Source: a virus
Reading direction: 5' to 3' (one strand)
IMG/VR virus record: IMGVR_UViG_3300027659_000022
Span: 1-64,000 of that record
Length of the DNA: 64,000 bases
The position numbers and the translations under genes are program-made. A model generated the notes under the pieces. That model searched no databases. It saw only the letters and a list, made by a program, of their open reading frames with translations, and was not told the DNA's origin. Position 1 is the first letter of the stretch. Every line of letters begins with the position of its first letter. Shown here in pieces: positions 23,201 to 39,555 of the stretch.

Positions 23201-26200
23201 AAGCAGGCGACCTAGTGGTTCCTATTGAAACACAGAACGGACTCACTGTAGGCACACGTTATTACGTAATTGCATCAGGACTTACAGCTACTGATTTCAA
23301 GGTATCAACAAGTTATGCGGGTGCAGCAGCCACAGGATTTACTAACGGTTCTGGTTTAACCTTGGTAATGACCTACGAGGATCGTCCGATTGCCACCAAC
23401 GCTGTAACTTCTACCACAGCACTAATTACTGCATTTACAACTCTAAGTGCGGCGGCTCAGACTATTGTATCAAACATGACAGTTTATATTGATGCAAACT
23501 TTCCATCATTAACCTATGATCCTAATAAGTGTGAAAGAGATGCTAGAATTATCTTAGATGCAGTAGGCTATGACTTCATGTTTAACGCCAACGGACAAAC
23601 TAGAAATGCAGCTTACGCTTATCTAAGAGCCAGTGCCAGCGATGTTTATAGTCTAGGACAGAAAGCAGCCACCCGAGCAGCATTTAGTTATGTGAAAACA
23701 CAAGCCAAGGCCAACGTAGGCGGTGATGCTACTGCACAGGCTCGCATTGAAACACTGATGACTCTGTTAGATGATATCATTTATGGCGCCACCAACGAAG
23801 GTAGTCGCTGTGCTTCTGGTAACAGGATGGTGGATTACGCAGTTCTGCAGTTAGAAAGAAACAGAGATTATGTTGTTACAGAGATCGATGCGTACATAGA
23901 CTCAACATATACAACCACAGTAACGAATGCCACAGCGGCCACAGATGTGTTTACCTGCACCAGCACAGCTTGGATGCAGCGTAATGCAGCAGTGAGATTC
24001 TCAGGAACTGTATTTGGCGGTATTAGCACAGGTACAACATATTACATACAGAATGTTGTAAGCTCAACAACCTTTAAAATCTCAACTACAAGAGATTCAA
24101 ACACAGCACTAGACATTGCATCTAATGCATCTGGATCTATGACTGTGAGCTTGTATTACAGCAGTGAAGCATGCCTGCGAGACGTTGGTACATATATTGA
24201 CGCACTAAAATATGATTTGAAATATCCAGGCAACTACAAATCTCGATATGCCGCTAGATACTATGGTAACAGCGTGGTTGGCAGCCTAGAAGAAGACATG
24301 TATTATCTACGTGATGGTACAGGTGTTAGAGATCAGACACTGCAGGGACTCACAGGCGATCTTTTAGCACCTAATGAGTACGGTACATCAAGAGTTTCGG
24401 CCGGAGCCTACTGTTCCTTGGATCCAGGTTGGGGTCCAGAAGATTACCGTACCTGGATCAACACTCGCTCACCATACGTACAAGGGGTGACCACACTGGG
24501 TACAGCCGCCGTGGGACAGAAGATCGACGGCTCGCTGCACAATGGTGGTAATGATTCCATCGTTTCCAACGACTTCACACAGGTTATATCAGACGGTATT
24601 GGTGCTTGGATCACCAACAACGGTCGTGCTGAATTGGTATCAGTGTTCTCATACTATGCGCACATCGGATATCTAGCAGAAAATGGTGGTAGGATCCGTG
24701 GCACCAACGGTAACTGTTCATACGGAGATTTTGGAGCTGTGGCAGAAGGATTTGATGCCAGTGAAACACCTGGCACAGCCGTAGTAGATAATAGACTGCA
24801 ATTTGAAGCAGTTATTGATCGCATTGTCACAGACGGATCGGCACTGACACAATTTGAATTTACCAATGCTGGTATTGATTACACTGAAGTCACATATGTC
24901 ATTACAGGTGGCGGCACTGGAGGATCAGTTCAGCAGGATGAATTCCGTGATGACGCTGTGTTCGAAGTACGCATGTTGGATCTAGTTGAAGACAGTACCG
25001 ACGCTGAAGAAGCTGTAGGTAATTTTGGTGGATTTGGTTATATTACAAATTCCAACACCTGCCAGGGCGGCACATCAACTTCAGTGACTATTGCTGCCAC
25101 AGATAGTGAGACCAGCACAGCCTATATAGGTATGAAAATCGTGCTCACAGGCGGTGCAGGTGTAGGACAGTTTGGTATTATCGACACATATAATTCAGGC
25201 ACTAAAGTAGCAGGCTTGGTCAAAGAATCCGATGGCACAGCAGGATTTGATCATTTGATAGCAGGCACAGCAATAGTATCACCAGATGCTTCTAGCACCT
25301 ATATCATCGAACCAAGAGTAACATTCTCAGCACCCGGCTACACATCCACAGCAGCTACACTGCCAACCTCAGGCACATGGACCGCTGTCAAATACGGAGA
25401 AACCGCAGCGGTATACGCATCAGTCACCGGCACCTACAGTGGTGCCGGTGTTGGTGCTACATTTACTGTGATACGCAACGGATGGAAATACACACCGTCC
25501 TTACAGACCGCTGGTACAGGATATGTGAGATTACAAACCATTACCATACTGGGAACCAGTCTCGGTGGGTTGAGCACAGCCAACGACCTAGTGATAACCA
25601 TCACCGCGGTTAATGCTGCAACTGGAGCTATCTTAAACTTTGATCATGCAGGATATGGCATAGGTGGCAGATATGTAGCTCTAAGAGGTGGCAGCACAGT
25701 GGGCGCAACATCTGAAGATGGTATTGCATGGGATACTCGAGCCAGCTTAATGCCGAGTGCGGCAAACTGGTCAGCTATGACTGCTGGCTTGTTTGATGAC
25801 GGATCCACAGTGGGCAAAGTCAGCAAATTCGTAGCAGTTGCTGGAACCTCAGCCAACACCACAGGTGCATATTCAGATGACGGCATTACTTGGTCAGCCG
25901 CCAGTATGCAGACATCAGCAACATGGGTAGATGTGGCATTTGGTGGTTTCAGCGCACAGAAATTTGTAGCAATAGCCAGCGATGTAACCACTGTGCGGAT
26001 CAGCAATGATGGTGAAAACTGGGATCAAACTGGCACACTTACCACCACTGGTTTCACAGCTATTGCATACGGTAAAAACAGATTCGTAGCCATCAAGAGT
26101 GGAACCGCAGTTACAAATTATGCTACCACATCAGGAGTCACGGGCACATGGACTGCAGGCACACTGCCAAGTTCATCGAACTGGAACAGTATAGCCTACG

Positions 26201-27558
26201 GTAATAACAGATTCGTAGCTGTGTCTAACACCAGTGGTACTGTAGCTGCCTACAGTCTAGATGGTATTACGTGGACTGCCAGCACACTGCCATCAACAGC
26301 ACAATGGACCAAGGTCACATACGGTCAAGGAGTATTCCTTGCTGTGAGTACAACCACAGCAGCAGCAACTTCTCCAGACGGTATCACATGGACTCTAAGA
26401 GCTACATCTACAGCAGCCAGTGGATTCTCAGCTGTCACTTTTGGTAACAGAAATCGTTATGGTCAATTTGTAGGTGTTGGCGCTAGCACAGGCACAGTAG
26501 CCACATACATTAGAACTGGAGCCACTGCTAGAGCTCGTGCGTTGGTGGCATCTAACAAGATATTCCAGATTAACATCACAGAGCCTGGTTCTGGATATAC
26601 TACTGAACCAACTATAACATTCACGGATCCTAACAACACCTTTGAAGCACCAGTAACCGTGAGACGAGGATCGGGAGTATTGGCCAATCCATCGTTTGTT
26701 AACCGAGGCACGCAGTATGTCACCAGCAGCTGTGAAGTAGACATCGGCGACGGTTACGCCAACGTGTTCCAACCAGGCGCATTTGTAGCAGTGAGACAGA
26801 TCACTGAACAACCAACTCCGGGATCTAATGTGGTGTTTGGACATCTACCAGATCGCACATTTAAATTAGTGAATGTTATCACGTTCTTGGGCGTCAACGA
26901 TGGAGCCTACACCGCATTCTTACAGATCAGTCCTAATTTAACCATCGGCGAAGCACCTGAAGATGCTGTAACGGTCACCACCAGACTGCGTTATAGCCAG
27001 TGTCGTTTAACTGGGCATGACTTCTTGGACATAGGTACTGGTAGTTTTATTGAAACTAACTATCCTAACTCTCCGTTGCAGCCGCCTATTCCAGCCAACG
27101 AAGCAGTTGATTCCAACGGTGGCCGTGTGTTCTTTACAAGCACAGACCAGGACGGTAACTTCCGAGTTGGCGACCTGTTTAACATTGAACAATCAACTGG
27201 TATTGCTACATTAAATGCTGATGCTTTTAATATTTCGGGCCTGCAAGAACTTAATTTAGGCAACGTGACACTAGGTGGCGGTTCGGCTACGATCACTGAA
27301 TTCTCTACAGACCCGTTCTTTACTGCGGATTCAGACAATATCGTACCTACACAGAGAGCGATCAAAGCCTATATTGGCAGCCAAATTGGTGGTGGTGGTG
27401 CTAGCTTGAACGTTAACTCAGTGACAGCAGGATCAGTGTTTATCAGCTCAAATATCATAACTACTACCACAGGCGGTGCGATTAAAATGAATGCTACCTT
27501 TGATTTCAGAGGGGGAGTAACTGGCCTTCCGTTGGCATTCAACTACTTTTTAAACTAA
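20278..27558 (+). CDS. giant tail fibre/baseplate-associated protein (2426 aa), paralog of 14631
   Basis: MAEFKLGRIRFVW start; the same CBM-like repeats, SLDPGWGP and GHDFLDIGTG blocks and Asp-box repeats; extra central helical repeats (KCERD..IVDA..YDL); TAAATA at 20254 and GGAG SD. Confidence 0.75.
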   Translation: MAEFKLGRIRFVWKNDWNPSTVYYIDDVIRYGARTYICAVGHTSAADFNTDLEYSPTKWNQMSDGQSWTGDWNTSTFYKLNDVVKYGGLLYICNDSHTSTATTASGLEADQAKWTLYAEGFDWKNSWSVSTRYKVNDLVRYGGYTYVCNTYHTSAATAASGLEADQAKWDSFNQGIEYKGTWVTATRYKLNDVIKYGAGLWICTTQHTADAAFLTDSTAGRWAQFAEGIEFEDTWSSGTLYQPGDIVRYGGNQYVAKNIHSAIVPSTGTSNWDLYSEGFKFQSDWNDSTSYKIGEVVRLRGYTYLATADNTNQEPPNVTYWQRLTSGIAWQGEWTDDINYKLGDAVRFGANAYICLLAHRSEGDDGSTIGPEGGGAANSRPDQDSTGTYWSLLNIGSETDILSVRGDLVYYSGSGPTRLPIGREGQVLRSDGVDPEWATLGEIDHNYFVAPHGTDLPAPIHGKTWDKPWKTIRYACEQVERGPRNPDATYLLELNRVFIQRETTEFIQNQITNNIAPFTSAFVYDDFKCERDVGFVVDALIYDLRHGGNVKTRGAANALIGGLSAEETEAYPGLAAESDESIAAYNYMVTVVEDVLAQTAPAVNYQTLNGDNSTATVSQYFNADLTAEPGAYTTAAGLVEVITDAITARAAAVTAPQIAAALASVPARRSPNNLISIATGQYRETLPIIVPEQTCVIGDELRSTNAGPAGSLTNLADSYYSMGALSRLETVVSQIITGSNVTESSGNTATQSAAFPYASADEQADITQLVRVIQHQIDYRISTTHMVTNTDPTGYDTAYLTGYGDARTLIKENKEFIKAEIIAFITENYPSVKYSRTICKRDTGFIVDAMVYDLTYGGFTQTLNAGLAYFDGTTGLEIDASEVTATVAAYGRLKTVMQEIAANTTVTKSTGNAATQWTDATNLTGGSAASAFIGANIDNITNLLAGDSTAATPPIVTVTSITGTDTFVTAGHSLQAGDLVVPIETQNGLTVGTRYYVIASGLTATDFKVSTSYAGAAATGFTNGSGLTLVMTYEDRPIATNAVTSTTALITAFTTLSAAAQTIVSNMTVYIDANFPSLTYDPNKCERDARIILDAVGYDFMFNANGQTRNAAYAYLRASASDVYSLGQKAATRAAFSYVKTQAKANVGGDATAQARIETLMTLLDDIIYGATNEGSRCASGNRMVDYAVLQLERNRDYVVTEIDAYIDSTYTTTVTNATAATDVFTCTSTAWMQRNAAVRFSGTVFGGISTGTTYYIQNVVSSTTFKISTTRDSNTALDIASNASGSMTVSLYYSSEACLRDVGTYIDALKYDLKYPGNYKSRYAARYYGNSVVGSLEEDMYYLRDGTGVRDQTLQGLTGDLLAPNEYGTSRVSAGAYCSLDPGWGPEDYRTWINTRSPYVQGVTTLGTAAVGQKIDGSLHNGGNDSIVSNDFTQVISDGIGAWITNNGRAELVSVFSYYAHIGYLAENGGRIRGTNGNCSYGDFGAVAEGFDASETPGTAVVDNRLQFEAVIDRIVTDGSALTQFEFTNAGIDYTEVTYVITGGGTGGSVQQDEFRDDAVFEVRMLDLVEDSTDAEEAVGNFGGFGYITNSNTCQGGTSTSVTIAATDSETSTAYIGMKIVLTGGAGVGQFGIIDTYNSGTKVAGLVKESDGTAGFDHLIAGTAIVSPDASSTYIIEPRVTFSAPGYTSTAATLPTSGTWTAVKYGETAAVYASVTGTYSGAGVGATFTVIRNGWKYTPSLQTAGTGYVRLQTITILGTSLGGLSTANDLVITITAVNAATGAILNFDHAGYGIGGRYVALRGGSTVGATSEDGIAWDTRASLMPSAANWSAMTAGLFDDGSTVGKVSKFVAVAGTSANTTGAYSDDGITWSAASMQTSATWVDVAFGGFSAQKFVAIASDVTTVRISNDGENWDQTGTLTTTGFTAIAYGKNRFVAIKSGTAVTNYATTSGVTGTWTAGTLPSSSNWNSIAYGNNRFVAVSNTSGTVAAYSLDGITWTASTLPSTAQWTKVTYGQGVFLAVSTTTAAATSPDGITWTLRATSTAASGFSAVTFGNRNRYGQFVGVGASTGTVATYIRTGATARARALVASNKIFQINITEPGSGYTTEPTITFTDPNNTFEAPVTVRRGSGVLANPSFVNRGTQYVTSSCEVDIGDGYANVFQPGAFVAVRQITEQPTPGSNVVFGHLPDRTFKLVNVITFLGVNDGAYTAFLQISPNLTIGEAPEDAVTVTTRLRYSQCRLTGHDFLDIGTGSFIETNYPNSPLQPPIPANEAVDSNGGRVFFTSTDQDGNFRVGDLFNIEQSTGIATLNADAFNISGLQELNLGNVTLGGGSATITEFSTDPFFTADSDNIVPTQRAIKAYIGSQIGGGGASLNVNSVTAGSVFISSNIITTTTGGAIKMNATFDFRGGVTGLPLAFNYFLN
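24616..24668 (+). repeat. 53-bp perfect direct repeat, copy 2
   Basis: Identical to 17154-17206. Confidence 0.9.
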
Positions 27559-27580
27559 ATATATACATGGAGAACAAATT

Positions 27581-27901
27581 ATGGCAACAGGAAGACTAGG
27601 AGTAGCAGATCTCTCAGCAGCTACTAATACCACATTATACACAGTGCCTGCAAGTACATTCGCAGTTGTAACTGTAAATGTGGTAAACAGGGGTGCATCA
27701 GCGGCTGCTGTAAGAATAGCAGTGGCTTCTACAGCATCTCCAGCAGATTCAGAATATATCGAATATGACGTTAGCCTAGCTGCAAAAGGTGTGGTAGAAC
27801 GCACAGGTATTGTTATGGATGCAGGAAAGCTCTTGGTAGTACGATCAAGTGCAGTAAGTGTAAATGCTGTGGTTTACGGCATCGAAACTTCAACTGCGTA
27901 A
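27581..27901 (+). CDS. small beta-sandwich fibre adaptor-like protein (paralog 3 of 3)
   Basis: TTLYTVPA...VNVVNR...YIEYD...ERTGIVM...VYGIE; TAAATA at 27556 and GGAG SD. Confidence 0.65.
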   Translation: MATGRLGVADLSAATNTTLYTVPASTFAVVTVNVVNRGASAAAVRIAVASTASPADSEYIEYDVSLAAKGVVERTGIVMDAGKLLVVRSSAVSVNAVVYGIETSTA

Positions 27902-27914
27902 CTAGGAGAATCAA

Positions 27915-28592
27915 ATGGGTAGAAAACATACAGCAGGATCGGTTGGTAATCAAGGTGTTGGCGGTGTTCAAGTTGATAACACCACGTTGTCTGCTGCTGA
28001 CAATCAAAACATCACCATTGATGCATCCGGAACCGGTTTATTTGTAATCGCAAGTGATACACTGATACAGGCTCAAGGCGACTTGAGATTTGGTGATGCT
28101 GACAGTTCTAATTATGTTGGGTTCCAGGCTCCAGGAACAGTTTCAGCTAATGTGTTATGGACACTGCCCGCAACTGACGGATCTAACACACAGGCGTTGA
28201 CTACCAACGGATCAGGTACATTGTCTTGGGCCACGAATTCCGTAGTCATATCTGACGAAGCCGCAGACGCTGCTTCCAACTATGTGGCGTTTACAACAGC
28301 CACTACAGGACAAATTACCACAGCTAGAGTCAGCAGTACTAAACTTACCTTTCAGCCAAGTTCTGGAACACTGACATCTACCGTTGTGACTTCAACAGGA
28401 AACACCACTGTTGGTGCAAATCTAAACATAACTGGAATTCCCAGTATCACTGGAAGCTTTCCGGTGTACCAAAATCAAACCAGTATAAACACTTATACAA
28501 TACCTGCAGGAACCAACGCTATGAGTGCAGGACCAATAACTATTGCTGCTGGACAAACGGTGACAGTTAATGGAGATTGGAGCATAGTCTAA
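27915..28592 (+). CDS. tail fibre shaft protein
   Basis: WTLPATDG...LTTNGSGTLSW fibre repeat; C-terminal TIP..NAMSAGPITI..VTV..W.IV motif; AGGAG SD. Confidence 0.7.
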   Translation: MGRKHTAGSVGNQGVGGVQVDNTTLSAADNQNITIDASGTGLFVIASDTLIQAQGDLRFGDADSSNYVGFQAPGTVSANVLWTLPATDGSNTQALTTNGSGTLSWATNSVVISDEAADAASNYVAFTTATTGQITTARVSSTKLTFQPSSGTLTSTVVTSTGNTTVGANLNITGIPSITGSFPVYQNQTSINTYTIPAGTNAMSAGPITIAAGQTVTVNGDWSIV

Positions 28593-29158
28593 TGAGCACA
28601 CTGGTCACTGACGAATTACAAGGACCACATGAGGCCAACCATCTCATAGCAATGCCAAACAACACTACCTTGTACGCTGCTGGGCAGACAATACAAACTG
28701 TTTGGAGAAAATTTCAAGGTGTGCAGACCTATAACAGCTATAATGATAACACCAGTAGACCAATCAGTGGATTGGATGTTAATATCACACTTAAGAGAGC
28801 CAACAGTAAAGTTATCCTAAAATGGTGGATTTTTTATGAAGCCCATCATGATATAACATTTCAGGCAATCCGTGGGGGCACAGTAATTGGATTCAACTCA
28901 GAAGTTGGTAATGTTAGATACAGCGGTATGGGTGGTGCTGACTATGAACATTCACATGATCAAAATAGTACCCCAACATACCAGCATCATTGCTGGATTG
29001 ACTCCCCAGGCACAGTTGGTCCGCACACTTATCAAATAGGTTCAAGATCATCTTCAAGTGCAAACTATGATATTCGTATGAATCGTTCTTGGAATGGTCC
29101 AACTGATGACCACGAAGTGGGTATAAGCTGGTGTGTGGTAGAGGAGATAGCTGTATGA
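28592..29158 (+). CDS. putative fibre-tip/receptor-binding module, family A copy 1
   Basis: Start re-called to ATG 28592 (TAATG overlap); G..IQ.V, L.V.IT..NSKV, PGT...TY, DDHEVG...EEI. Confidence 0.65.
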   Translation: MSTLVTDELQGPHEANHLIAMPNNTTLYAAGQTIQTVWRKFQGVQTYNSYNDNTSRPISGLDVNITLKRANSKVILKWWIFYEAHHDITFQAIRGGTVIGFNSEVGNVRYSGMGGADYEHSHDQNSTPTYQHHCWIDSPGTVGPHTYQIGSRSSSSANYDIRMNRSWNGPTDDHEVGISWCVVEEIAV

Positions 29159-29709
29159 GCGTGACTCTTAACAATCTCCAACCACAATCAGGCACAGAAA
29201 TCGTATTCAATGCCGCACATCAGATGCAGCACCAAGGTAAAGTTGTGCAGACTCAGACAGTAACTACTCATGTGCGAACCACTTATTCAGCAACCAACAG
29301 CGGAAATGGCAATGTGATCACTCAGCTAAATTTACTCATCACACCATATCGTGCGGACAGTTACATTTGGTTGCGATGGACAGTGGCCTATGAAATGCAT
29401 CATGACACATCGTTTGTTGTACAACGCGATGGTACTTTAATTGGATACAATTTAGATATAGGTAATACTAGATGGAGTAATATACTTACTCCGCAATATG
29501 ATAATGATTACTCATCAACACCCCAGGTTAGTACTATAAATTGGTTTGATCTTGCGGGATCAACTGCTGCGAGAACCTATCAATTAGCTGTAAGAAGCAG
29601 TGGCGGCAGCAACCATACATTTGCTCTTAATAGAACTCTTGGTTCCACAGGCACAGACGGTCACGAGATTGGGGTTAGTCATGGTATAGCAAGGGAGATC
29701 AGTGGATGA
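29155..29709 (+). CDS. putative fibre-tip module, family A copy 2
   Basis: ATGA overlap; GKVVQ, ITP..DS.I, YEMHHD, DGHEIGVS..REI. Confidence 0.65.
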   Translation: MSVTLNNLQPQSGTEIVFNAAHQMQHQGKVVQTQTVTTHVRTTYSATNSGNGNVITQLNLLITPYRADSYIWLRWTVAYEMHHDTSFVVQRDGTLIGYNLDIGNTRWSNILTPQYDNDYSSTPQVSTINWFDLAGSTAARTYQLAVRSSGGSNHTFALNRTLGSTGTDGHEIGVSHGIAREISG

Positions 29710-30320
29710 CCTTAAAAGTAAACAATATTTCAGGAACCAGCGGCGTTGTTCGCGTGGCACATCCCAACGCCATATATCAACCAGGACAGATCATACAGGT
29801 CAAATGGAGCCGTGCCATGCAGCGTCTACGTTACAATATCCCTAACAACGACGGTGGAAGCCGAGGCGATGTTTTTGCCACGGGTATCTCAGAAGGTGGC
29901 ACCATCATACGTCCCTTGGATGTTACAATCACTCCAAAAAGTCTAGACAGTTATATCTTTGTGGAATTTTGTGTGGCCTATGAAGCCACAAACAATATTG
30001 TGTTTAACATAGTCAGAGACGGAATGTTAGTCGGTGCGTCATTTGCCAACGTCAACGATCAAACATACAATAGTAGATGGACTGGTGCAGGTGTTAGTCG
30101 CTATGACAATAACGATTCATCAACACCGGGTCATATCTGCTTGCCTTGGGTAGACAGACCGGGAACCACAGATCCAGTAACCTACGGATTTGCTGCACGT
30201 AGTAGTGGCGGCAGCAACCATGAGTTCATGTTAAATACCACCTACGGCAGTTACCTAAACGGTCAAGACGATCATGAAGTTGGCGTGAGCTTTGGAATCG
30301 CACAAGAAATAGCATTTTAA
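29706..30320 (+). CDS. putative fibre-tip module, family A copy 3
   Basis: ATGA overlap; GQIIQV, ITPKS.DS.I, PGTT..VTY, DDHEVGVS..QEI. Confidence 0.65.
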   Translation: MTLKVNNISGTSGVVRVAHPNAIYQPGQIIQVKWSRAMQRLRYNIPNNDGGSRGDVFATGISEGGTIIRPLDVTITPKSLDSYIFVEFCVAYEATNNIVFNIVRDGMLVGASFANVNDQTYNSRWTGAGVSRYDNNDSSTPGHICLPWVDRPGTTDPVTYGFAARSSGGSNHEFMLNTTYGSYLNGQDDHEVGVSFGIAQEIAF

Positions 30321-30342
30321 AGAATAATAAGGATCTAATACA

Positions 30343-30777
30343 ATGGCAGACGAACAAACTAAAATTTTACCTGTGGCAACAGCACTGGGCGTGCTGTGTC
30401 CTAATAATAAATGGAGCATCGAAGCTGATGACCTAGCTACTCTAGTTTGGGATGACGATCCAGAAGCTAGACCCACAGATGAAGAGATTACTGCAAAAGC
30501 TCAAGAATTACTAGCGGCAGCTCCATTACGAAGACTGCGTCAAATGCGCGATGAACGCATGCGTGAAGTAGATTGGGTTACATTACGAGCAGCTAGAACT
30601 GGGGAACCTGTTCCCCAAGAATGGCGGGACTACATGCAGGCTCTAGCTGATATCACCGATCAAGTAGGCAATGCTACACTCAGTGGGAGAGAAATCTTTG
30701 GTGTAACATGGCCTGAGCGTCCAGACGGGAAGCCAGCAGGTAATCAGAGAGCCCAACGAGGATTATTCGGTCTATGA
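30343..30777 (+). CDS. phage tail fibre assembly chaperone-like protein
   Basis: AL..L.P...W...L.W......PT..EI, then LR..RD.....DW...W..Y.QAL.DI..Q...WP motif. Confidence 0.7.
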   Translation: MADEQTKILPVATALGVLCPNNKWSIEADDLATLVWDDDPEARPTDEEITAKAQELLAAAPLRRLRQMRDERMREVDWVTLRAARTGEPVPQEWRDYMQALADITDQVGNATLSGREIFGVTWPERPDGKPAGNQRAQRGLFGL

Positions 30778-31277
30778 CAACACTAAGGGTAGATAATCTA
30801 CAACATCAAAATCAAGAATATCTTTTACCACTGACTCAACTACGTCAGCGTACTATTAAAGAATATCGTCAAACCTATCAAAATGGTAGTTGGGAACCCA
30901 GCGACTCTTACGCATGGGCTCCAGGATTATGGGTTGATTATCAGCCAGCTTCGGCATCAAGTAGAATTAGAGCCACTTGGTGTTTTAATTTCGCACACAC
31001 CGACGGTCATGCAATTTCCAGCTGTGTATTTTACAGCAACGGCAGCACCGAACAAGGCCGGCACAGCATAGCAGGTCAGAGCCCAGAATATCGACACACC
31101 TATGTATGGGAATTTGACAGCTGGGGTACTAGTCGTGCTCGTATCGGATATCAAATAAGACGGCACGGCGGCAGCAACCGACCTAGATTTTTTGGTACGC
31201 ACCATTGGGATGGTGTTGGATCAAATCAAACTGGAACCAGCCAACTGTTTGTAGAGGAATATTTGCCAATAACATGA
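30774..31277 (+). CDS. putative fibre-tip module, family B copy 1
   Basis: W.P...Y.W.PG...D..P, SWG..RIGYQ.R and WDG.GS.Q...EE motifs. Confidence 0.65.
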   Translation: MTTLRVDNLQHQNQEYLLPLTQLRQRTIKEYRQTYQNGSWEPSDSYAWAPGLWVDYQPASASSRIRATWCFNFAHTDGHAISSCVFYSNGSTEQGRHSIAGQSPEYRHTYVWEFDSWGTSRARIGYQIRRHGGSNRPRFFGTHHWDGVGSNQTGTSQLFVEEYLPIT

Positions 31278-31783
31278 GCACACTTATCACAAATTCTCTT
31301 AGTTTTGATCCTAATTCAACTCCTATACCTTTAACAGAGTTAGGACATCGTGTGGTCAAAGAAGCAAGAGCCACCTATGATGGTGGTCAATGGAATCCTG
31401 ATACCACCTATGCATGGATTCCTGGTATGTTCAACGACTACACTCCATTGCTGGCAACATCTAGAATACGCATGACCTGCATGATTCCTTATGCAAGAAA
31501 TTCTGGCTCAGCACACGCTATCAGTCACTGGATATTTTATGCCAACGGTGCTGAGCAAGGACGACATGGAGTATCTGGAGAACATCACGAAGATATGCGT
31601 ACCTATGTATGGGATGTGGCCAGCTGGGGCACAGCTTCAGGACGTATCGGCTACCAAATGCGGGCCTATGCCAACGATAACAACGAAGTTAGACCTTATT
31701 GTACGCAATACTGGGATGGTGGCGGCTCAGTACAAAACTGTCGCGGCCAATACGTGATTCAAGAATATCTTCCAGGAGTGTAA
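31274..31783 (+). CDS. putative fibre-tip module, family B copy 2
   Basis: Start re-called to ATG 31274 (ATGA overlap); same motifs. Confidence 0.65.
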   Translation: MSTLITNSLSFDPNSTPIPLTELGHRVVKEARATYDGGQWNPDTTYAWIPGMFNDYTPLLATSRIRMTCMIPYARNSGSAHAISHWIFYANGAEQGRHGVSGEHHEDMRTYVWDVASWGTASGRIGYQMRAYANDNNEVRPYCTQYWDGGGSVQNCRGQYVIQEYLPGV

Positions 31784-31786
31784 TAG

Positions 31787-32293
31787 ATGCCTAATAATGT
31801 ACAGATTTCAACCTTACAAGATGTCTCTGGATCTGTGACTATTCCTGTGGTAGAATTAACCACACGAGTCATACAATATATTAGACAGGATTATACCGCC
31901 GGGGTATGGAATCCAGATAATTCATACAACTGGGTGCCAGGCGCTTTTTACGATTTCACTCCAAAACGAGCAGACAGCGTTATTAGTTATACTATGAGGC
32001 TACCAATAGCAAGAGCCGGTGGATCAACACATGCTATTGGAAACTGGTATTTTTACGCCAACAACATAATTTATTATCGCTGGGAAGACAGCCTACAGCA
32101 CGGAGAAAACGGCAACATATGGCAATTTCAAATTCCAAGCTGGGGTACCAGCACCGGTCGTATCGGTCTTCAACATCGCGCCCATAGTAATGACAGCAAC
32201 GAATTTAGAATGTATACCACAGAATACTGGGATGGTGTTGGATCAAATCAGAATTGTCGCGGACAGCTGTTCATCGAGGAGATCGTGTTATAA
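31787..32293 (+). CDS. putative fibre-tip module, family B copy 3
   Basis: WNPDNSYNWVPG, SWGTSTGRIG, YWDGVGSNQNCRGQ. Confidence 0.65.
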   Translation: MPNNVQISTLQDVSGSVTIPVVELTTRVIQYIRQDYTAGVWNPDNSYNWVPGAFYDFTPKRADSVISYTMRLPIARAGGSTHAIGNWYFYANNIIYYRWEDSLQHGENGNIWQFQIPSWGTSTGRIGLQHRAHSNDSNEFRMYTTEYWDGVGSNQNCRGQLFIEEIVL

Positions 32294-32844
32294 TGGGTAC
32301 TTTAACCACCAGCTATATAGCCAGCAGCACTGGATCACTGGTAATTCCTATCAGAGAACTGGCTACTAGATGCATACAAAGATATCATAGTCAATATACC
32401 TCAGGAGAATGGAATCCGGACACTACCAGCAACTGGGCACCAGGAGGATTTGTAGATTTTACTCCCCAACGTGCAGACAGCAGGATTGTGTTTATTTGGC
32501 GTGTGCCAACAGCTTGGTCAAACGCCGCCCACAGTATCAGCCATTGGAGATTTTATGTTAATGGTGTTCTTTATTATAGACATGGTATGGGCGGCACACA
32601 TGTGGAAGATGGAAATACACTGAAGTGGGATGTACCAAGTTGGGGTACATCATCTGGACGTATTGGATATCAAGTACGATCTCATACCAACGACAACCAC
32701 GAAACTAGACTGTATAGAACATACTATTGGAACGGCACTACATCAACTCAAAACGCCTACGGACAGTTAATAGTTGAAGAATGGGCACAATCAGGATTAC
32801 CAGCCGGTGCTGATAATACCGAAGGCATAGTTACTGCCCGCTAA
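32293..32844 (+). CDS. putative fibre-tip module, family B copy 4
   Basis: Start re-called to ATG 32293 (TAATG overlap); same motifs. Confidence 0.65.
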   Translation: MGTLTTSYIASSTGSLVIPIRELATRCIQRYHSQYTSGEWNPDTTSNWAPGGFVDFTPQRADSRIVFIWRVPTAWSNAAHSISHWRFYVNGVLYYRHGMGGTHVEDGNTLKWDVPSWGTSSGRIGYQVRSHTNDNHETRLYRTYYWNGTTSTQNAYGQLIVEEWAQSGLPAGADNTEGIVTAR

Positions 32845-32888
32845 ATAACATTATGGTATTATACAACCAAAAGATTAGGAGATAAAAC

Positions 32889-33218
32889 ATGTCAAGTGAA
32901 ATAGATTTCGGTGAAGTTATGCATAGATTCTATGCAGGTCGCCAGTACGGTGTAAGAGGCCCCAACTATGAAGATATTTCGTGGATGGAACCAAGCGAAC
33001 CAATGCCCAGCAGAGAAGCATTAGCTGCTAAATGGGAAACAATCAAAGAAGAAATTAGATTGATGAAAATTGCCCAGAAAAGATCAACACCTGGTGAATA
33101 CCCCGGTAAAGATGAAATTCTAGTTGCACTATGGGAAATGGTAGTTGAAAATCGTCCCGAAAAAGCTGAGGCATTACAAGCACGTAGATTAGAAATCAAA
33201 GCCAAGTATCCTAAATAA
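32889..33218 (+). CDS. second tail fibre chaperone-like small protein
   Basis: Y..I.W......P....L..KW...R...YP...E.L.ALW...IKAKYPK pattern; AGGAG SD and TAAATA at 32842. Confidence 0.6.
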   Translation: MSSEIDFGEVMHRFYAGRQYGVRGPNYEDISWMEPSEPMPSREALAAKWETIKEEIRLMKIAQKRSTPGEYPGKDEILVALWEMVVENRPEKAEALQARRLEIKAKYPK

Positions 33219-33220
33219 TT

Positions 33221-33760
33221 ATGACTGCAACTTTAAGAGTTAATACCATTACTAACTCAACTGCCAGTGTCAGTTTAGCCACCACTTATTTTCAAAGAAG
33301 ATTGGTGCAGAGAATTTACAAGCGATTCCACGGTGGTGGAAATCCAGAGCAAGGCGGTGGAGGACTTTGGAATCCAGGAAACGAATACAGACCAATTCCA
33401 GGAAATTCTTTGAGTATTACTCCCATGTATAGCAACAGTATATTGGTATATACCTGCAATGCTCCTGTGGGGCATCGTCAAAATAGCCACAGTATCACTC
33501 ATTGGAAATTTTATGCAGGTGGTCAAGAATATGCTCGTCACAGTAAATCAGGAACGCACATGAGTCATGCACATGTTCATAGATGGGAAGTTCCTAGTTG
33601 GGGTGCGGGGCGAGCAGGTATGATGGGATATCAAGTTAGACAATACGGTGACGGAACGCACTCAACACATTTCAACGGCCGTCGTTGGCTTGACGGCAGC
33701 GACACTAGTAGATCAGTACCAAGTTACGTAATGGTAGAGGAGTATGTGACAGCACCATGA
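33221..33760 (+). CDS. putative fibre-tip module, family B copy 5
   Basis: WNPG..Y..PG, HSITHWKFY, WEVPSWG, GYQVR, VEEY. Confidence 0.65.
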   Translation: MTATLRVNTITNSTASVSLATTYFQRRLVQRIYKRFHGGGNPEQGGGGLWNPGNEYRPIPGNSLSITPMYSNSILVYTCNAPVGHRQNSHSITHWKFYAGGQEYARHSKSGTHMSHAHVHRWEVPSWGAGRAGMMGYQVRQYGDGTHSTHFNGRRWLDGSDTSRSVPSYVMVEEYVTAP

Positions 33761-34752
33761 CCGCCCAATTAAACGTTTCAACCATTCAAAGTGAAGATGG
33801 ATCAATATCCAGAAACATACAAGATTTCGCTCACAGGGTAGTTCAACGAGTAAGTTACACACACCGAAACGGCTGGATTCGTGGTGATAACACCTATTAT
33901 TGGATGCCTGGAGGCTATGCCGATTTTACTCCAGTAAGATCAGACAGTAGAATAAGATCCACATGGTGCATTCACACCAGAGACTATGGTTCCAGCCACA
34001 TGATAATGCACTATATTTTTTACAGAGATGACATAGAGTATGGCCGCTTTACTAGAGGCGGACACGAAATAGAAAATACCAACGCCATAGAATGGGATAT
34101 TCCAAGCTGGGGCGCTGGACAAAAAGCTCGTATGGGGCACAGATATCGAGCATACGTAGACGGTAATCACAATGCGCATCTATTCCACACTGAGTGGTGG
34201 GACGGTAGTGGCAGCGGCCAAAGTGTGCCGGGACAATATACAATTTTAGAATACGTTCCTAAACTTCCTCTTAATACTGCTGACATGCCACATAGTCAAC
34301 AGAATATGCAAAACGCTGCTGTAAGAAATAACGGTGCAGGCGGTGCTGGATCAGCGGCCAGCGATGGCCTGGGAGATGATCGTACGCGAAGTCTAAGCTA
34401 CGGTTGGCATTCTAGTCCAGCTGTTTTTAACGGAATTTGTGCAGTTTACATGGGTAACAAATATCCTAACGGAGTTGTTGTAAATCAACTACGTCTAATT
34501 GCTCACACTAACCATTTACAAGCATTTACTATTCAAGGTAGTAACGATAGTGGTCAAGGTGCAAACTTCCATAATGCTGGAAACTGGACCACAATTATTA
34601 CAGGTGACGGTGGCGGCCCAGGCTCAGCATTTGACCGCCAAGCACTGGATTACCAATCAACCAATACTACACCATACCTAGCATACCGCATAGTTGTTAC
34701 AAGCGGTGGTAGCGGTTGGGCCAGCTACGGTTGGGAACTATACGGGTATTAA
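33757..34752 (+). CDS. fibre-tip module family B copy 6 fused to C-terminal discoidin (F5/8 type C)-like domain
   Basis: First ~170 aa match family B; C-terminal FTIQGSND...WTTI...YLAYRIVV...ELYG pattern. Confidence 0.65.
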   Translation: MTAQLNVSTIQSEDGSISRNIQDFAHRVVQRVSYTHRNGWIRGDNTYYWMPGGYADFTPVRSDSRIRSTWCIHTRDYGSSHMIMHYIFYRDDIEYGRFTRGGHEIENTNAIEWDIPSWGAGQKARMGHRYRAYVDGNHNAHLFHTEWWDGSGSGQSVPGQYTILEYVPKLPLNTADMPHSQQNMQNAAVRNNGAGGAGSAASDGLGDDRTRSLSYGWHSSPAVFNGICAVYMGNKYPNGVVVNQLRLIAHTNHLQAFTIQGSNDSGQGANFHNAGNWTTIITGDGGGPGSAFDRQALDYQSTNTTPYLAYRIVVTSGGSGWASYGWELYGY

Positions 34753-34810
34753 TTCATATTTGATCTCATATCTTATTACTGTAAAATAAGTAGTTGCATA
34801 GGAGATAGAC

Positions 34811-35284
34811 ATGCATCATGACGAAATAATTTCTCAGTTTATCGGAAAAGACGGAAAGGTCCTCTACATCGGAAACCCCACGGATGCTATAAAAAAACCA
34901 ACAACACCGTCGGTTTTCCACGCCATTGATCCTTCAACAACACTCATTGATGCATCTAATTTACCAAAAGATTTTGATACTGTGATATTTGCAACAGCGT
35001 TAGAACTAGTAAATGACCCGCGAGGATTGATAAATCAATTCAAATGGCAGGCCAAATGTACAATTGTCTATGAATTCAAATACGATCACATGGACGACAT
35101 TGATCCGTCATGGAAACTAACCTGGAAAAATATCGGATTAGAAAATATACTCACTTGGGAATTTGATTATGTTAGAAGCATATACCTAGGATATGCTACA
35201 ATATATTTCTGCGAAGGTCCCAACAAATATACTCCTGACGAAATCGGAGAGGGTGTCTCAGTTGAACACAAAAACACAATTTAA
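34811..35284 (+). CDS. hypothetical protein, possible degenerate SAM-methyltransferase fold
   Basis: KVLYIG...FDTVIF..ALE.V.DP resembles class I MTase motifs but lacks a clear GxG; GGAG SD. Confidence 0.4.
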   Translation: MHHDEIISQFIGKDGKVLYIGNPTDAIKKPTTPSVFHAIDPSTTLIDASNLPKDFDTVIFATALELVNDPRGLINQFKWQAKCTIVYEFKYDHMDDIDPSWKLTWKNIGLENILTWEFDYVRSIYLGYATIYFCEGPNKYTPDEIGEGVSVEHKNTI

Positions 35285-35304
35285 AACTTAAAAGGTAACT
35301 GACA

Positions 35305-36777
35305 TTGATTAATAACATAGCTATAGTAGGTGGGGGCACAGCCGGAGTAACTACCGCTTTGATTTTAAAAAAAACATATCCTAATCTACAGATTGATTTG
35401 ATAGAATCAGATCAGATAGGAATCGTAGGGGTAGGAGAAGGCAGCACTGAACATTGGGCTACCTTCATGCAGCACTGTGATATCAGTACCACTGAGCTGG
35501 TCAAACATACTGATTGTACTTTTAAATACGGTATTAATTTTGATAACTGGAATGGCGATGGTACAAATTATATTCACACAATTAGCAGTGCTTTTAACAT
35601 GGAGAGTCAAAGCAACAGTAAATTTGTATACTCATATCTGATAGCCAACGGAGCAGGCCCCAAGGATCTCATTCACAAATATATAGAACCTAGTCTGCAT
35701 AGAATGCCGTTCTTTACTATAAACCAATTTCATTTTAACACAACCAAATTAAATAAATTCCTACACGATCTCTGCGATCAAAGAAAAATAAACACCATAA
35801 AAGCAGAAATCAAAGAAGTTAAATTGGATGAGCAGGGCGCAATCAAAGAGTTAATTACCACAACTGATAAACACCTTAGTTATGACTTATATGTCGATTG
35901 TACCGGATTTCATCGTTTGCTTTTGCACAAAACTATGGGGGTCAAATGGCGCAGTTACCAAAAATATCTTCCAATGAACAGTGCTATCGCATTCCCTACA
36001 GAAACCACAGAAAAAATTCCCAGTTGGACACTAGCAAAGGCAATGAACAATGGATGGTTATGGAGAATTCCAACTCAACAACGATACGGCAATGGTTACG
36101 TGTTCAATGATAGTTTTATAGATTTCGACAAGGCCGTTGACGAAGTTGAAAAGCTCTATGGACATAAAATACAAGTAGCAAAAAAAATAAAATTTGATGC
36201 AGGATGTTTAGAAAAATCATGGGTAAAAAACTGTGTAGCTATTGGTTTATCTAGCAGTTTTATTGAACCTCTAGAAGCCAGCTCAATAGGATGCAGTATA
36301 CAACAGGCATTCAAGTTAAATCATTTATTACCTGCTTATATACCGGAAATTAAAACTACTCGGGTGATCGACGAATTCAATCAAGAATGTGATGAACTTC
36401 TTGAAAATATTTTAGATTATGTAGCATTACATTATATCACTAAGAGAACTGACACAGATTTTTGGAAATCTGCTAAGACTCTTCCAAAACCTTCGGGGTT
36501 AGAAGACAAATTAGAATTATACAAATACAAATTTCCTAGTAAGTCAGAATTTTCAAATAGAAAAGTCATGTTTAAAGAAGCCAACTGGATATTAGTAATG
36601 CATGGTCTAGGATTAATCAGCAAAGAATTAGCACAGAAAGATGTGGACATGCAGGCTAAACATCTAATGGAATCAATACCGTATAATCTTCCTAAAGAGG
36701 ATATCGATTCTGGAGAATTTGTTGATCATAGGCAGGCGTTACAATGGCTAATTGACAATCCAGAGCAGATAAATTGA
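35305..36777 (+). CDS. flavin-dependent halogenase (tryptophan halogenase/PrnA family)
   Basis: GGGTAG FAD motif, GVGEGS, catalytic-Lys region TFKYGINF, WLWRIP (WxWxIP), FIEPLEASSI; TTG start. Confidence 0.9.
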   Translation: MINNIAIVGGGTAGVTTALILKKTYPNLQIDLIESDQIGIVGVGEGSTEHWATFMQHCDISTTELVKHTDCTFKYGINFDNWNGDGTNYIHTISSAFNMESQSNSKFVYSYLIANGAGPKDLIHKYIEPSLHRMPFFTINQFHFNTTKLNKFLHDLCDQRKINTIKAEIKEVKLDEQGAIKELITTTDKHLSYDLYVDCTGFHRLLLHKTMGVKWRSYQKYLPMNSAIAFPTETTEKIPSWTLAKAMNNGWLWRIPTQQRYGNGYVFNDSFIDFDKAVDEVEKLYGHKIQVAKKIKFDAGCLEKSWVKNCVAIGLSSSFIEPLEASSIGCSIQQAFKLNHLLPAYIPEIKTTRVIDEFNQECDELLENILDYVALHYITKRTDTDFWKSAKTLPKPSGLEDKLELYKYKFPSKSEFSNRKVMFKEANWILVMHGLGLISKELAQKDVDMQAKHLMESIPYNLPKEDIDSGEFVDHRQALQWLIDNPEQIN

Positions 36778-37418
36778 TAATTAGTCAAGGATTAAATTGG
36801 CTGATCACTGATCACATTGCTGATTTAGGTACTATTAAAAAAGTAGTCAGTGATGTAACGTCGGAAGATTGGTCATCATATACCACAGCTAAAGGCCCAT
36901 TATCTAGACAGCACTACTTAATAAACCCGTCATGGATGCCATCCCAAGTTCATGAAGAACCACAAGGATGGGCTGAACTTAAATTGTGGTATGAAAACAC
37001 CGTACAAAAGTTATTGGTACATCACGGTCTTATGCCAGGTCAATGGCAAGGAATTTCAGCAAACAGATCGTGGACTGTGATCGGCGAAGAAGGCAGTTAT
37101 CATACGATACACGATCATGGACCAAATTCTGTATGCTCTGTGACCTATCTCGAAGTACCGGAACAAAATAAAAACGACGATAAAGCGGGTCAAATTTATT
37201 TTGTATTACAGTCCGATCCCTATCATCCATTAACTCCGGTAAAACATAAAGTAGTTCATATATCTCCAAAACCGGGAATGATCGTAATTTTTCCTAGCTG
37301 GTTACTACATGGCGTTTATCCTCAAGGTCCAGGAATACGCCAAACACTCAATGTTGATTTTGTCGGAAACGTGTGTCCAGGGCCAGAAGATTCTGCTGGA
37401 TATATTAGTATTTTATAA
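36774..37418 (+). CDS. 2OG-Fe(II) oxygenase superfamily protein
   Basis: H-x-H (IHDH), G.I.F, IFPSWLLHGV.P and R..L..D motifs. Confidence 0.8.
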   Translation: MIISQGLNWLITDHIADLGTIKKVVSDVTSEDWSSYTTAKGPLSRQHYLINPSWMPSQVHEEPQGWAELKLWYENTVQKLLVHHGLMPGQWQGISANRSWTVIGEEGSYHTIHDHGPNSVCSVTYLEVPEQNKNDDKAGQIYFVLQSDPYHPLTPVKHKVVHISPKPGMIVIFPSWLLHGVYPQGPGIRQTLNVDFVGNVCPGPEDSAGYISIL

Positions 37419-37501
37419 AGTTATTTTGTCTAGACGATATCTTTGATATTTTAACTTAATTGTAATATAGTTATTTGGCGAAAACCTAAATCATTTTTCG
37501 A

Positions 37502-37507
37502 TAAATA
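37502..37507 (+). promoter_or_regulatory. late promoter TAAATA-N5-ATG
   Basis: GATAAATACTATT ATG, close to the T4 late consensus TATAAATACTATT. Confidence 0.75.
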
Positions 37508-37512
37508 CTATT

Positions 37513-39555
37513 ATGACCAGAGAAACCCTCAATATTTTAAGAATCATACCTAGAGATGCTGATTTTCTAGATAGAAAAACTGGATCTCGCGGAGAAATAT
37601 TCTACGATAAAGATACAAATACACTTCGTTTGTATGACGGACAATATCAGGGAGGTTATACACTAGCTAAGGCAGACTTAACAAATATCACTAACTCAGA
37701 TTTCCTTGCCAAAGCTAATTCAGCAGGATTTAGTGGTGGGGTACAGGCAGGTGTAGCTGGTAGAATAGCCTACTATCCTAGTACAGGCAGTCAGGTCAAC
37801 GATCTTGCTGAAGTTTATTGGCATACACACGATAGCGCCAGTATGTTGCACATCAACGGACTGTTGGAAGTATCTGGCCAAAAAAATAAGATACGTTTCC
37901 ACTGGGACACACTGGCTGATTTAACCAGTGAAGTTCCTGCTGTAGATTGGCACGGTATGGTAGCCCACGCACACGATACGGGGAAATTGTATTACGCTCA
38001 TGCCAGTGCTTGGGTGCCAGTAGCCAGCGAATCTAGTCTGCCCAATTCATTTAGCACTGTGGTTGTTGCAGGACAGAGCTCTGTGATAGCCGATTCTACT
38101 GCTGACACACTAACCCTAGTCGCCGGCTCTAATATTACTATTACTACCAATGCTGGCACAGACACCGTAACCATAAGTTCAACTACCAGCACAGGTTCTA
38201 TTACTTTTGTAGGAACCACAATAGATTCAGCAGACAGTTCCACCATCACATTTACGCCTACGGTGGCATTTGATTCAGATGTTGTGGTAGGCAATGAAAT
38301 TGTATTCGCGGACGGGACAAGGCAATCGACCACCGCCGTAGGAGTTCCCGGACCACAAGGACCACCAGGCCCCACAGGAGCGTCAGGCGCGGGAACAGGG
38401 GATGTATTAAGCGCAGGCGGCGGGTATGTGGATAATGCTATCATACGCTACGATGGTACCACAGGTACAATCATTCAAAACAGTTCTGCGACTATATCAG
38501 ACGCTGGATTATTGACAGCTACCAGCTTCAGTGGTATCGGCAGTTCTCTGACTGCGTTAAATGCTACACAACTGACTGCTGGAACTATACCAGATGCACG
38601 TTTTCCAGCTACACTGCCTGCACTAAGCGGAGCAAATCTCACAGCATTGCCTGCGACCCTGCCAGCCGCCAGCGGTGCAAATCTTACTGCATTGAACGCC
38701 ACTGAACTTACCAGCGGGACAGTACCTGTGCTTAGACTAGGTGCGTCTGGCACTAGAGACGCTACTACCTATCTCAGAGGAGATAATACATGGGCTACAG
38801 TAGCAGGCGGCGGCGGAGCAGCATCCGACAGTTTCGCTACTATCGCAGTAGCTGGACAAAGTTCTGTTGTAGCTGATTCTGCCACAGACACATTAACACT
38901 GGTAGCTGGTAGTGGTATAACTATTACCACAGATGCCGGTACAGATACGATAACTATAACCAATAGCAGTGCTGCTCAAAATACATTTTCCACTGTGGCA
39001 GTCACCGGACAGAGCAACATCGTAGCAGATTCTAGCACAGATACACTGACAATAGCAGCCGGTACAGGTATTTCTATTACCACAGATGCAGGCACAGACA
39101 CAGTAACTATAACCAGCACAGTCGCCGCTGGCGCTACTGCATTCACTGGTCTTAGCGATGCAGGAAGTCTCACCGTGGATAGATTTTATCTTCCTGCGAT
39201 CACTATGTTGGATGTCACTGCCAACGGCACATCAGCCTATAGATTTGATCAGTACGGTACCACAGATGATCCTACCATATATGCCATCAATGCTACGACT
39301 ATCGCATTCAATTTGGCCGGCGCTACTAGCCATCCGTTCCTAATACAGGACAACACCGGTACCAATTACAACACTGGATTGGTGCATGTAACCACCAGCG
39401 GAGTTGTGACCACAGGGGCAGCAGCACAGGGCAAGTCATCGGGTACTTTGTATTGGAAGATTCCTGATTCTATATCAGGCAACTATAGATATCAGTGTCA
39501 ATCTCATGCTGGTATGATAGGGACTATAACCATCAAGAACTTTGGCAGCATCTAA
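37513..39555 (+). CDS. fibre-like virion protein with collagen segment, three internal repeats and C-terminal cupredoxin-like domain
   Basis: GPQGPPGPTGASGAG; three copies of F.T..V.GQS...ADS..DTLT..AG..I.ITT.AGTDT.TI; HPF...YQCQSHAGMIG. Confidence 0.7.
   Translation: MTRETLNILRIIPRDADFLDRKTGSRGEIFYDKDTNTLRLYDGQYQGGYTLAKADLTNITNSDFLAKANSAGFSGGVQAGVAGRIAYYPSTGSQVNDLAEVYWHTHDSASMLHINGLLEVSGQKNKIRFHWDTLADLTSEVPAVDWHGMVAHAHDTGKLYYAHASAWVPVASESSLPNSFSTVVVAGQSSVIADSTADTLTLVAGSNITITTNAGTDTVTISSTTSTGSITFVGTTIDSADSSTITFTPTVAFDSDVVVGNEIVFADGTRQSTTAVGVPGPQGPPGPTGASGAGTGDVLSAGGGYVDNAIIRYDGTTGTIIQNSSATISDAGLLTATSFSGIGSSLTALNATQLTAGTIPDARFPATLPALSGANLTALPATLPAASGANLTALNATELTSGTVPVLRLGASGTRDATTYLRGDNTWATVAGGGGAASDSFATIAVAGQSSVVADSATDTLTLVAGSGITITTDAGTDTITITNSSAAQNTFSTVAVTGQSNIVADSSTDTLTIAAGTGISITTDAGTDTVTITSTVAAGATAFTGLSDAGSLTVDRFYLPAITMLDVTANGTSAYRFDQYGTTDDPTIYAINATTIAFNLAGATSHPFLIQDNTGTNYNTGLVHVTTSGVVTTGAAAQGKSSGTLYWKIPDSISGNYRYQCQSHAGMIGTITIKNFGSI

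Follow-up and report, generated by a model that had tools for sequence, protein, structure and literature searches.

Nine paralogous candidate fibre-tip genes behind a conserved C-terminal motif in a freshwater jumbo phage

The window analysed here – 64,000 nucleotides, positions 1 to 64,000 of IMG/VR virus record IMGVR_UViG_3300027659_000022 – carries, directly behind its fibre genes, an array of nine small paralogous genes that fall into two families, A (three copies) and B (six copies), together with two chaperone-type genes. The window is part of a record of 86,365 bases (CheckV completeness 25%). Its portal and major head genes are of the T4 type, and its head protein shares 66-71% identity with the counterparts in jumbo phages (Sinorhizobium phage Phosso, Vibrio phage 2.275.O, Pseudomonas phage PA5oct and kin, and Pectobacterium phage CBB). 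The carrier of the locus is a freshwater jumbo phage. The array, we argue, may encode the subunits of heterotrimeric fibre tips that plug into a conserved motif at the end of a short shaft protein.

Gene order and family membership

Two giant fibre genes (1870 and 2426 aa; phrog_9851, 'tail fiber protein') precede the array, and the genes behind them all lie on the plus strand. First, after the 2426-aa giant, comes g27581 (27581..27901, 106 aa), a small fibre-associated protein matching phrog_11338 (E 2.3e-11) and phrog_693 ('tail fiber protein', E 5.9e-8). It is followed by g27915 (27915..28592, 225 aa), a putative short shaft or adaptor with a variable body and a conserved C-terminal motif; its C-terminus matches phrog_34255 (E 6e-5), and its last ~45-50 residues (28440..28589) constitute a candidate socket ('dock'). 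Then come the predicted stand-alone tip subunits A1 (28592..29158, 188 aa), A2 (29155..29709, 184 aa) and A3 (29706..30320, 204 aa); chaperone 1 (30343..30777, 144 aa); B1 (30774..31277, 167 aa), B2 (31274..31783, 169 aa), B3 (31787..32293, 168 aa) and B4 (32293..32844, 183 aa); chaperone 2 (32889..33218, 109 aa); and finally B5 (33221..33760, 179 aa) and B6 (33757..34752, 331 aa). The open reading frames described in a first-pass annotation, made from the sequence alone, are thus all present, and its observation that most are joined by ATGA or TAATG overlaps is borne out: overlaps account for seven of the 11 junctions between 27915 and 34752 (ATGA at 29155, 29706, 30774, 31274 and 33757; TAATG at 28592 and 32293), the others being separated by 22, 3, 44 and 2 nt. 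Neither promoter-like sites (25 versus 27.3 in shuffles) nor terminator-like sites (5 versus 6.7) are in excess. The whole 86-kb record holds exactly three A copies, six B copies and one copy of the C-terminal motif.

Paralogy within each family, first proposed on the basis of shared motifs, is clear. The three A proteins match one another by BLASTP at E 1.6e-27 to 7e-38 and 34.5-38.4% identity (A2 finds A1 at E 1.3e-29 and A3 at E 7e-38), the six B proteins at E 4.5e-17 to 5.4e-55 and 25-49% identity, and the motifs originally quoted are invariant or consensus columns of the alignments. The domain length given at the time, 165-205 aa, needs amending for the gene at 33757 (B6), in which a B domain (residues 1-170) is followed by an extra C-terminal domain of ~156 aa (34282-34749). 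Kinship between the two families, proposed from a common N-terminal strand and core, is weak when the window copies are compared alone (hhalign 16.7%, E 0.0015) and is upheld once relatives are added (87 + 24 sequences: 82.1%, E 1e-5, 157 collinear columns), with an alignment that spans the N-terminal strand to the C-terminal EEI/EEY. The family B profile matches A1 (E 1.9e-5), the best direct link being that of B4 to A1 (BLASTP E 2.9e-5); jackhmmer searches among 1469 open reading frames (ORFs) retrieved 90 from A2 and 92 from B2, with 89 of 93 in common. These comparisons indicate that A and B are distant members of one superfamily.

The affiliation of family A is with tail fibres. A profile search of 1.84 billion representatives returned 4002 relatives at E <= 0.001; among the best 150, from which architectures were taken, the domain is C-terminal in 106 – in proteins of up to 1560 aa – and stands alone in 38, the rest being three split or repeated matches, two N-terminal matches with an extension, and one other. 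A1 and A3 match phrog_6942, a 'tail fiber protein', A1 at its very end (positions 534-707 of 708, E 2e-13; A3, E 1.2e-11), and in the only solved relative, the tail fibre of Legionella phage LME-1 (PDB 9efk, orf22; 658 aa), the family profile covers residues 483-656 (E 3.7e-11). In the portion of the LME-1 account drawn on here six trimers are described and the distal part of the fibre is unmodelled in the map (PMC12407071), so 9efk gives no fold for family A. Judged from its profile matches, family A is a very common tail-fibre tip domain. Among 50,697 cultured phage records there is no DNA match to the window and no match to family B; family A occurs in four records, representing two cyanophages.

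Family B is more isolated. Its profile recovers 206 metagenomic relatives, none informatively named; there is no Pfam or PHROG match, and PDB sequence and profile searches return nothing at E <= 10. Within its own clade 122 of 124 domain matches place it at the N-terminus, where it may precede lectin-like (Laminin_G_3), Gly_rich_2, Ig-like or cupredoxin-like domains, the add-ons named in relatives being Laminin_G_3, Gly_rich_2, He_PIG and Big_5; since these add-ons follow an N-terminal B domain, the free C-terminus of B proteins is probably exposed. In distant relatives (L016-18 and P0273; L numbers denote fetched loci, P numbers proteins) the domain forms the C-terminal end of short fibres. 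The extra domain of B6 is discoidin-like at best: its resemblance to the chitosan-binding discoidin modules 2rv9, 4zxe and 4zy9 is marginal (E 0.003, ~100 residues) and its match to F5_F8_type_C_2 (PF22633; E 0.064, 14.3 bits against a cut-off of 27.8) is below threshold. The C-terminal ~110 residues of the next fibre gene (37513-39555; query residues 556-674) also recur as a family B add-on, in P0098 and P0108 (phmmer E 6e-10 and 1e-6); in one source such a protein goes by the name 'plastocyanin'.

Two genes at 30343 and 32889 had been described as chaperone-like. For 30343 the description is secure: residues 63-128 match PF16778, Phage_tail_APC (E 7.5e-15, 55 bits against a gathering cut-off of 26.6), and the protein matches phrog_4912 ('tail fiber assembly', E 3e-12). 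For 32889 it depends on position and remote similarity: 60 columns align with the N-terminal part of the 30343 orthologs (hhalign 86%, E 5.1e-6) and there is a match to phrog_9114, of unknown function (E 0.0014); no Pfam family is found at E <= 0.1, the Phage_tail_APC cut-off is not reached, and PDB sequence and profile searches give no match. In L016-18 and L027 homologs of chaperone 2 stand behind genes of the B or A type.

Might the modules be something other than tip subunits – monomeric accessory adhesins, decoration proteins, or enzymes sharing a fold with fibre tips? No fold can be assigned, family B has the empty Pfam and PDB record just described, Pfam matches across 61 members are inconsistent, and the His, Glu and Trp residues conserved in the alignments might form a site for binding or catalysis. 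The profile matches to tail-fibre C-termini are nonetheless strong, Tfa-type chaperones adjoin the modules, and the position right after fibre genes is conserved; we regard this explanation as very improbable. Leads from the ESM Atlas were followed and set aside: the Pgp3 C-terminal domain (14% of members) and C1q (23%, score 0.85) are weak, the rest are unnamed viral clusters, and Pfam across the 61 family A members does not back them (Chlam_vir 1/61, RGI_lyase 6/61). A search for the collar domain PF07484 found none at E <= 0.1 in the products of 28592, 29706, 30774, 32293 and 33757, and none at E <= 5 among the 61 family A members.

The array is fixed

The first-pass annotation saw in the array a combinatorial repertoire giving breadth of host range, and proposed comparing copy number and order in related phages. 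We made this comparison on nine related viral contigs (L007-L015), loci fetched with the B profile whose B2 proteins are 57-83% identical to that of the window. There is no variation: the order three A, chaperone 1, four B, chaperone 2, two B is found in 9/9. Downstream stand g34811 and a tryptophan-halogenase-like gene, with a 2OG-Fe(II) oxygenase in every locus whose fetched DNA extends far enough. A relative with a completeness rating of 94% carries exactly one gene with the C-terminal motif, three A and six B genes, and the set of nine is confined to the window's clade.

Trees show that each position forms its own clade across these relatives, with A1, A2 and A3 one clade each (A1 starred, 96; A3 starred, 99) and B5 likewise (starred, 98). 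Within family B there are three starred pair clades, B1+B2 (96), B3+B4 (96) and B5+B6. The copies are old duplicates, which agrees with the earlier judgement that they are well diverged, intact and not the product of recent amplification. They are also slow to change. Compared with L007 the modules are 74-91% identical, with a nonsynonymous divergence (dN) of 0.08-0.19, similar values being seen for the chaperones (0.08) and the halogenase (0.14); dN is 0.41 for g27581 (55% identity), 0.77 for g27915 (body 38% identity) and 0.41 for g34811.

The same picture emerges from environmental DNA. Of the words sampled from 26001-36000, 97-100% are present in each of at least 14 DNA runs (freshwater, lake water and two labelled fungus metagenome; 2017-2025); the phage is widespread and stable. 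In two lake DNA runs the array is covered by a single contig identical to the window (27577-34537 in X14, 27577-39216 in X3), a comparison of assembled contigs, from which rare variants are lost. In these runs the giant fibre gene of 2426 aa and g27581 (20278-27900) are represented by many short variant contigs, joints and loose ends (for example 24415-24689 and 27142-27819); it is in this region that strain-level variation of the fibre apparatus lies. Four metatranscriptome runs hold 31-91% of the sampled words and two cover much of the array, with DNA carry-over a possible source of the signal.

No long repeats are found among the copies (the longest shared DNA is 62 nt at 74%), inverted repeats amount to two pairs of 17-18 nt at 82-83%, and no cassettes of the invertase-shufflon type were found; the template repeat of a diversity-generating retroelement had no dedicated search. 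A hypervariable island is ruled out for the array by low dN and by the single invariant contigs of the two lake runs. Fixed order, low divergence, invariant lake contigs and the lack of repeats do not fit a fast-changing repertoire, and the proposal of host-range breadth through variability is not supported: the array is fixed, not variable.

A C-terminal motif and the recurrence of three

The motif at the end of g27915 was found by aligning the ends of genes that precede stand-alone A triplets. It comprises ~45 residues, with the core G-P-[IV]-T-I ... T-V-T-V-x-G-D-W-S-[IV]-V, and lies at the extreme C-terminus: of g27915 and its orthologs, in which the body varies more than any other part of the locus; of the 2308-aa giant of L015, which is without a separate shaft gene; of the giant fibres of S-WAM2 and ACG-2014j; of the 847-aa fibre of L027; and of a 64-codon ORF of L022/23. 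A profile built solely from seven sequences of the jumbo clade, searched against 2189 six-frame segments, matched outside that clade ACG-2014j (1.3e-11), S-WAM2 (2.1e-9), L022/L023 (5.9e-8) and L027 (2e-7), the next best segment scoring 0.43. Each of these matches is the C-terminal end of a gene preceding a stand-alone A triplet, and the four lineages are unrelated, two cultured cyanophages being among them. The motif is absent from L024-26, whose fibres include a fused A domain. In a Rosetta-stone test of the fetched relatives no long protein joined a part resembling g27915 or a giant fibre to an A domain. PDB sequence and profile searches with the motif gave nothing below E 0.39, and a 50-aa query found no match in the 50,697 phage records, a query so short having little power.

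The motif is common. IMG/VR yields at least 599 pattern matches and at least 452 confirmed places, and in 80 fetched loci the genes downstream are small and most start with the same type of N-terminal strand. Several families are represented – the A/B superfamily, Gly_rich_2, proteins with the Peptidase_S74 intramolecular chaperone, and proteins of unknown family – with small chaperone-like genes among them, and the gene that bears the motif is usually followed by three small tip genes. The conserved end of g27915 is probably a socket for tip proteins; if three unlike subunits make up a tip on such a socket, the motif would be a simple marker of these loci.

We counted runs that start with an A/B-superfamily member and are uncut by a contig end, taking superfamily members only. 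Ten run clusters have three modules, one has two and five have one; in the single-module runs the large ORFs that come next are of other families and did not enter the count. A further four lineages are contributed by the A triplets of S-WAM2, ACG-2014j, L022/23 and L027, and inspection of the motif loci by eye shows additional threes from other families, a single four (L088) and some cases that are not clear. L081/83 carry a mixed A-B-A triplet, the middle gene of which is the closest outside relative of family B (starred, 99). The suggestion of the first-pass annotation that the counts of three and six reflect heterotrimeric tips is therefore favoured by the comparative data: stand-alone genes recur in threes behind the C-terminal motif in unrelated phages.

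A serious alternative is that the nine proteins form nine separate homotrimeric tips, shown together or alternately on a branched fibre apparatus, so that the virion would be multivalent like that of multi-tailspike phages. Phage fibres are normally homotrimeric; the LME-1 fibre, the nearest solved relative, is reported, in the portion of the account drawn on here, as trimers of one protein; and wherever the domain ends a single long protein, as in the 106 of the best 150 relatives, it must be homo-oligomeric. Moreover, five of the six B orthologs of L015 have C-terminal add-ons, and these differ from position to position, as suits separate tips, while the presence of one socket for nine modules could mean competition among tips. 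However, independent tips are expected to vary in number, whereas 3+6 is fixed in all nine relatives and three recurs behind the motif in unrelated lineages; and modules that change slowly and show no strain variation in two DNA runs are unlike typical host-range determinants. On balance we think nine homotrimers somewhat unlikely.

Assembly of the tip and comparison with known systems

The reading that we prefer, and to which we would give an even chance, is a split fibre whose distal end carries heterotrimeric tips, with three A and six B subunits served by one socket. Here g27915 would be a short, fast-changing shaft or adaptor, and a homotrimeric shaft would end in three socket motifs. The tip proteins would keep a short N-terminal strand – the plug – before the tip domain, and three unlike subunits would plug in by these strands to give a heterotrimeric tip, aided by the adjacent chaperone. 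A1, A2 and A3 would thus form a heterotrimer on the socket, folded with the Tfa-like product of 30343. The six B proteins would likewise be tip subunits of fixed stoichiometry, most simply two heterotrimers folded with the product of 32889, each taking one member of every B pair, an arrangement that the three B pair clades fit. With stop and start codons overlapping, the subunits would be made in nearly equal amounts, and the free C-termini would face outward, offering the glycan-binding or Ig-like add-ons of relatives and the discoidin-like domain of B6. Gene order is what suggests the plug-socket contact and the heterotrimeric state, and the site of B attachment is inferred as well; gene order also prompts a reading of the B array as two copies of a 'module-module-chaperone-module' cassette.

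Several observations weigh against this reading. The run clusters are not independent, many of them representing one 'module, module, chaperone, module' lineage, and three is the mode rather than the rule, since runs of one, two and four (L088) recognisable modules occur. In the trees positions 1, 2 and 3 form no clades across distant lineages, and the cyanophage triplets do not pair one to one with A1-A3; the triplets may be repeated inventions, or the trees may lack resolution. Synonymous divergence is saturated, so that dN/dS ratios are unreliable and were not used. The A domain need not be terminal: P0123 (1454 aa) has five in tandem, with helical-looking linkers of 31-59 residues, and P0200 (1659 aa) has six, with linkers of 50-73 residues (the remaining split or repeated match, the short P0239, was matched in two pieces). 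Finally, there is one socket gene for nine modules: the B sets may be rivals of A for g27915 or may bind elsewhere, and alternative tips may be loaded on one shaft.

The tandem proteins indicate that the A domain can also form internal fibre nodules, which brings to mind a serial stack: the modules would be successive trimer nodules along the fibre axis, each plugged into the previous one, a non-covalent version of a tandem-domain fibre. In keeping with this, some socket proteins start with a plug-like N-terminus, consecutive socket genes occur in L032, L073 and L100, and the last gene of the array, B6, bears an extra distal domain. But the modules themselves are without the motif, which is single in the record; C-terminal add-ons such as those of the L015 B orthologs would block end-to-end stacking; and the number three is left unexplained. 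We consider a stack improbable. The motif also ends a set of very small proteins of 61-111 aa (L022/L023, L043, L044, L056, L032, L073 and L100), and the motif-bearing genes, two in a row in L032, L073 and L100, in some cases start with a module-like N-terminus: these hint at a modular plug-and-socket chain.

What would follow from heterotrimeric tips? Phage fibres are usually treated as homotrimers of one gene, and both host-range prediction and fibre engineering assume as much. If the tips are heterotrimeric, one fibre could offer an asymmetric or composite binding surface, and annotation pipelines would miss the real receptor-binding unit; a nine-subunit phage near-unchanged in at least 14 DNA runs provides an abundant natural test case. 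A bolder version, which we advance as doubtful, is that of a widespread plug-and-socket fibre system: the ~45-residue C-terminal socket on a homotrimeric shaft would take three unlike tips by their N-terminal strands, many phage fibres – those of cultured cyanophages included – would end in heterotrimers, and the jumbo phage would encode three alternative heterotrimers (A1-A2-A3 and two B sets) competing for a single socket, so that one virion shows three tip types without genetic switching. A literature search on heterotrimeric phage fibres found no description of such a plug-and-socket system, only the study of virophage DSLV2 being of fitting kind. The motif and the recurrence of three are the main new leads presented here.

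Behind the array the window continues (34811-37418) with the 157-aa g34811, the tryptophan-halogenase-like gene (PF04820, E 3e-107) and the 2OG-Fe(II) oxygenase (PF13759, E 8.6e-16). L010-L013 share this order, L007 and L015 ending within or just after the stretch; the halogenase is present twice in L010 and L012, and a 2OG oxygenase also lies near the A triplet of S-WAM2. It is possible that these enzymes modify the Trp- and His-rich fibre proteins. A further peculiarity concerns the third A-type gene of L027 (5563-7077), which has an insertion of ~330 residues in mid-domain, the profile matching residues 2-95 and 423-504.

How does the array compare with known systems? The usual Tfa-type arrangement has one chaperone per fibre gene. 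As in Tfa/Phage_tail_APC pairs, a chaperone gene here stands right after tip-encoding genes, but one follows three genes and another lies inside a run of six. Closer in layout are the cyanophages S-WAM2 and ACG-2014j (Kyanoviridae), which share a giant fibre ending in the motif, three stand-alone A genes – annotated just 'tail fiber protein' – and a small chaperone-like gene; they differ in lacking family B and in bearing the motif on the giant fibre itself rather than on a separate 225-aa protein. LME-1 offers the covalent counterpart, a bona fide tail fibre whose C-terminal 170 residues belong to family A; there the domain is fused and present in three identical copies, whereas in the array it is detached from the fibre and occurs as three unlike genes.

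The nearest parallel lies outside the phages. In virophage DSLV2 (J Virol 2025) three consecutive tail proteins co-purify 1:1:1 (PMC12724248); their genes, of ~200 aa, are orthologous by position and akin to Synechococcus phage fibre proteins, and the products are gp37-like with the collar domain PF07484 (PMC12724248). Three consecutive tail genes of this size, with positional orthology across relatives, are what the two systems have in common. They differ in that PF07484 is carried by the DSLV2 proteins and was not matched in the A and B proteins searched here, and in that the portion of the DSLV2 paper drawn on here describes a virophage capsid rather than a phage fibre, without a socket motif, chaperone genes or a six-gene second family. 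By analogy, the DSLV2 tail would be the same idea realised in another protein family, and it is the closest published case.

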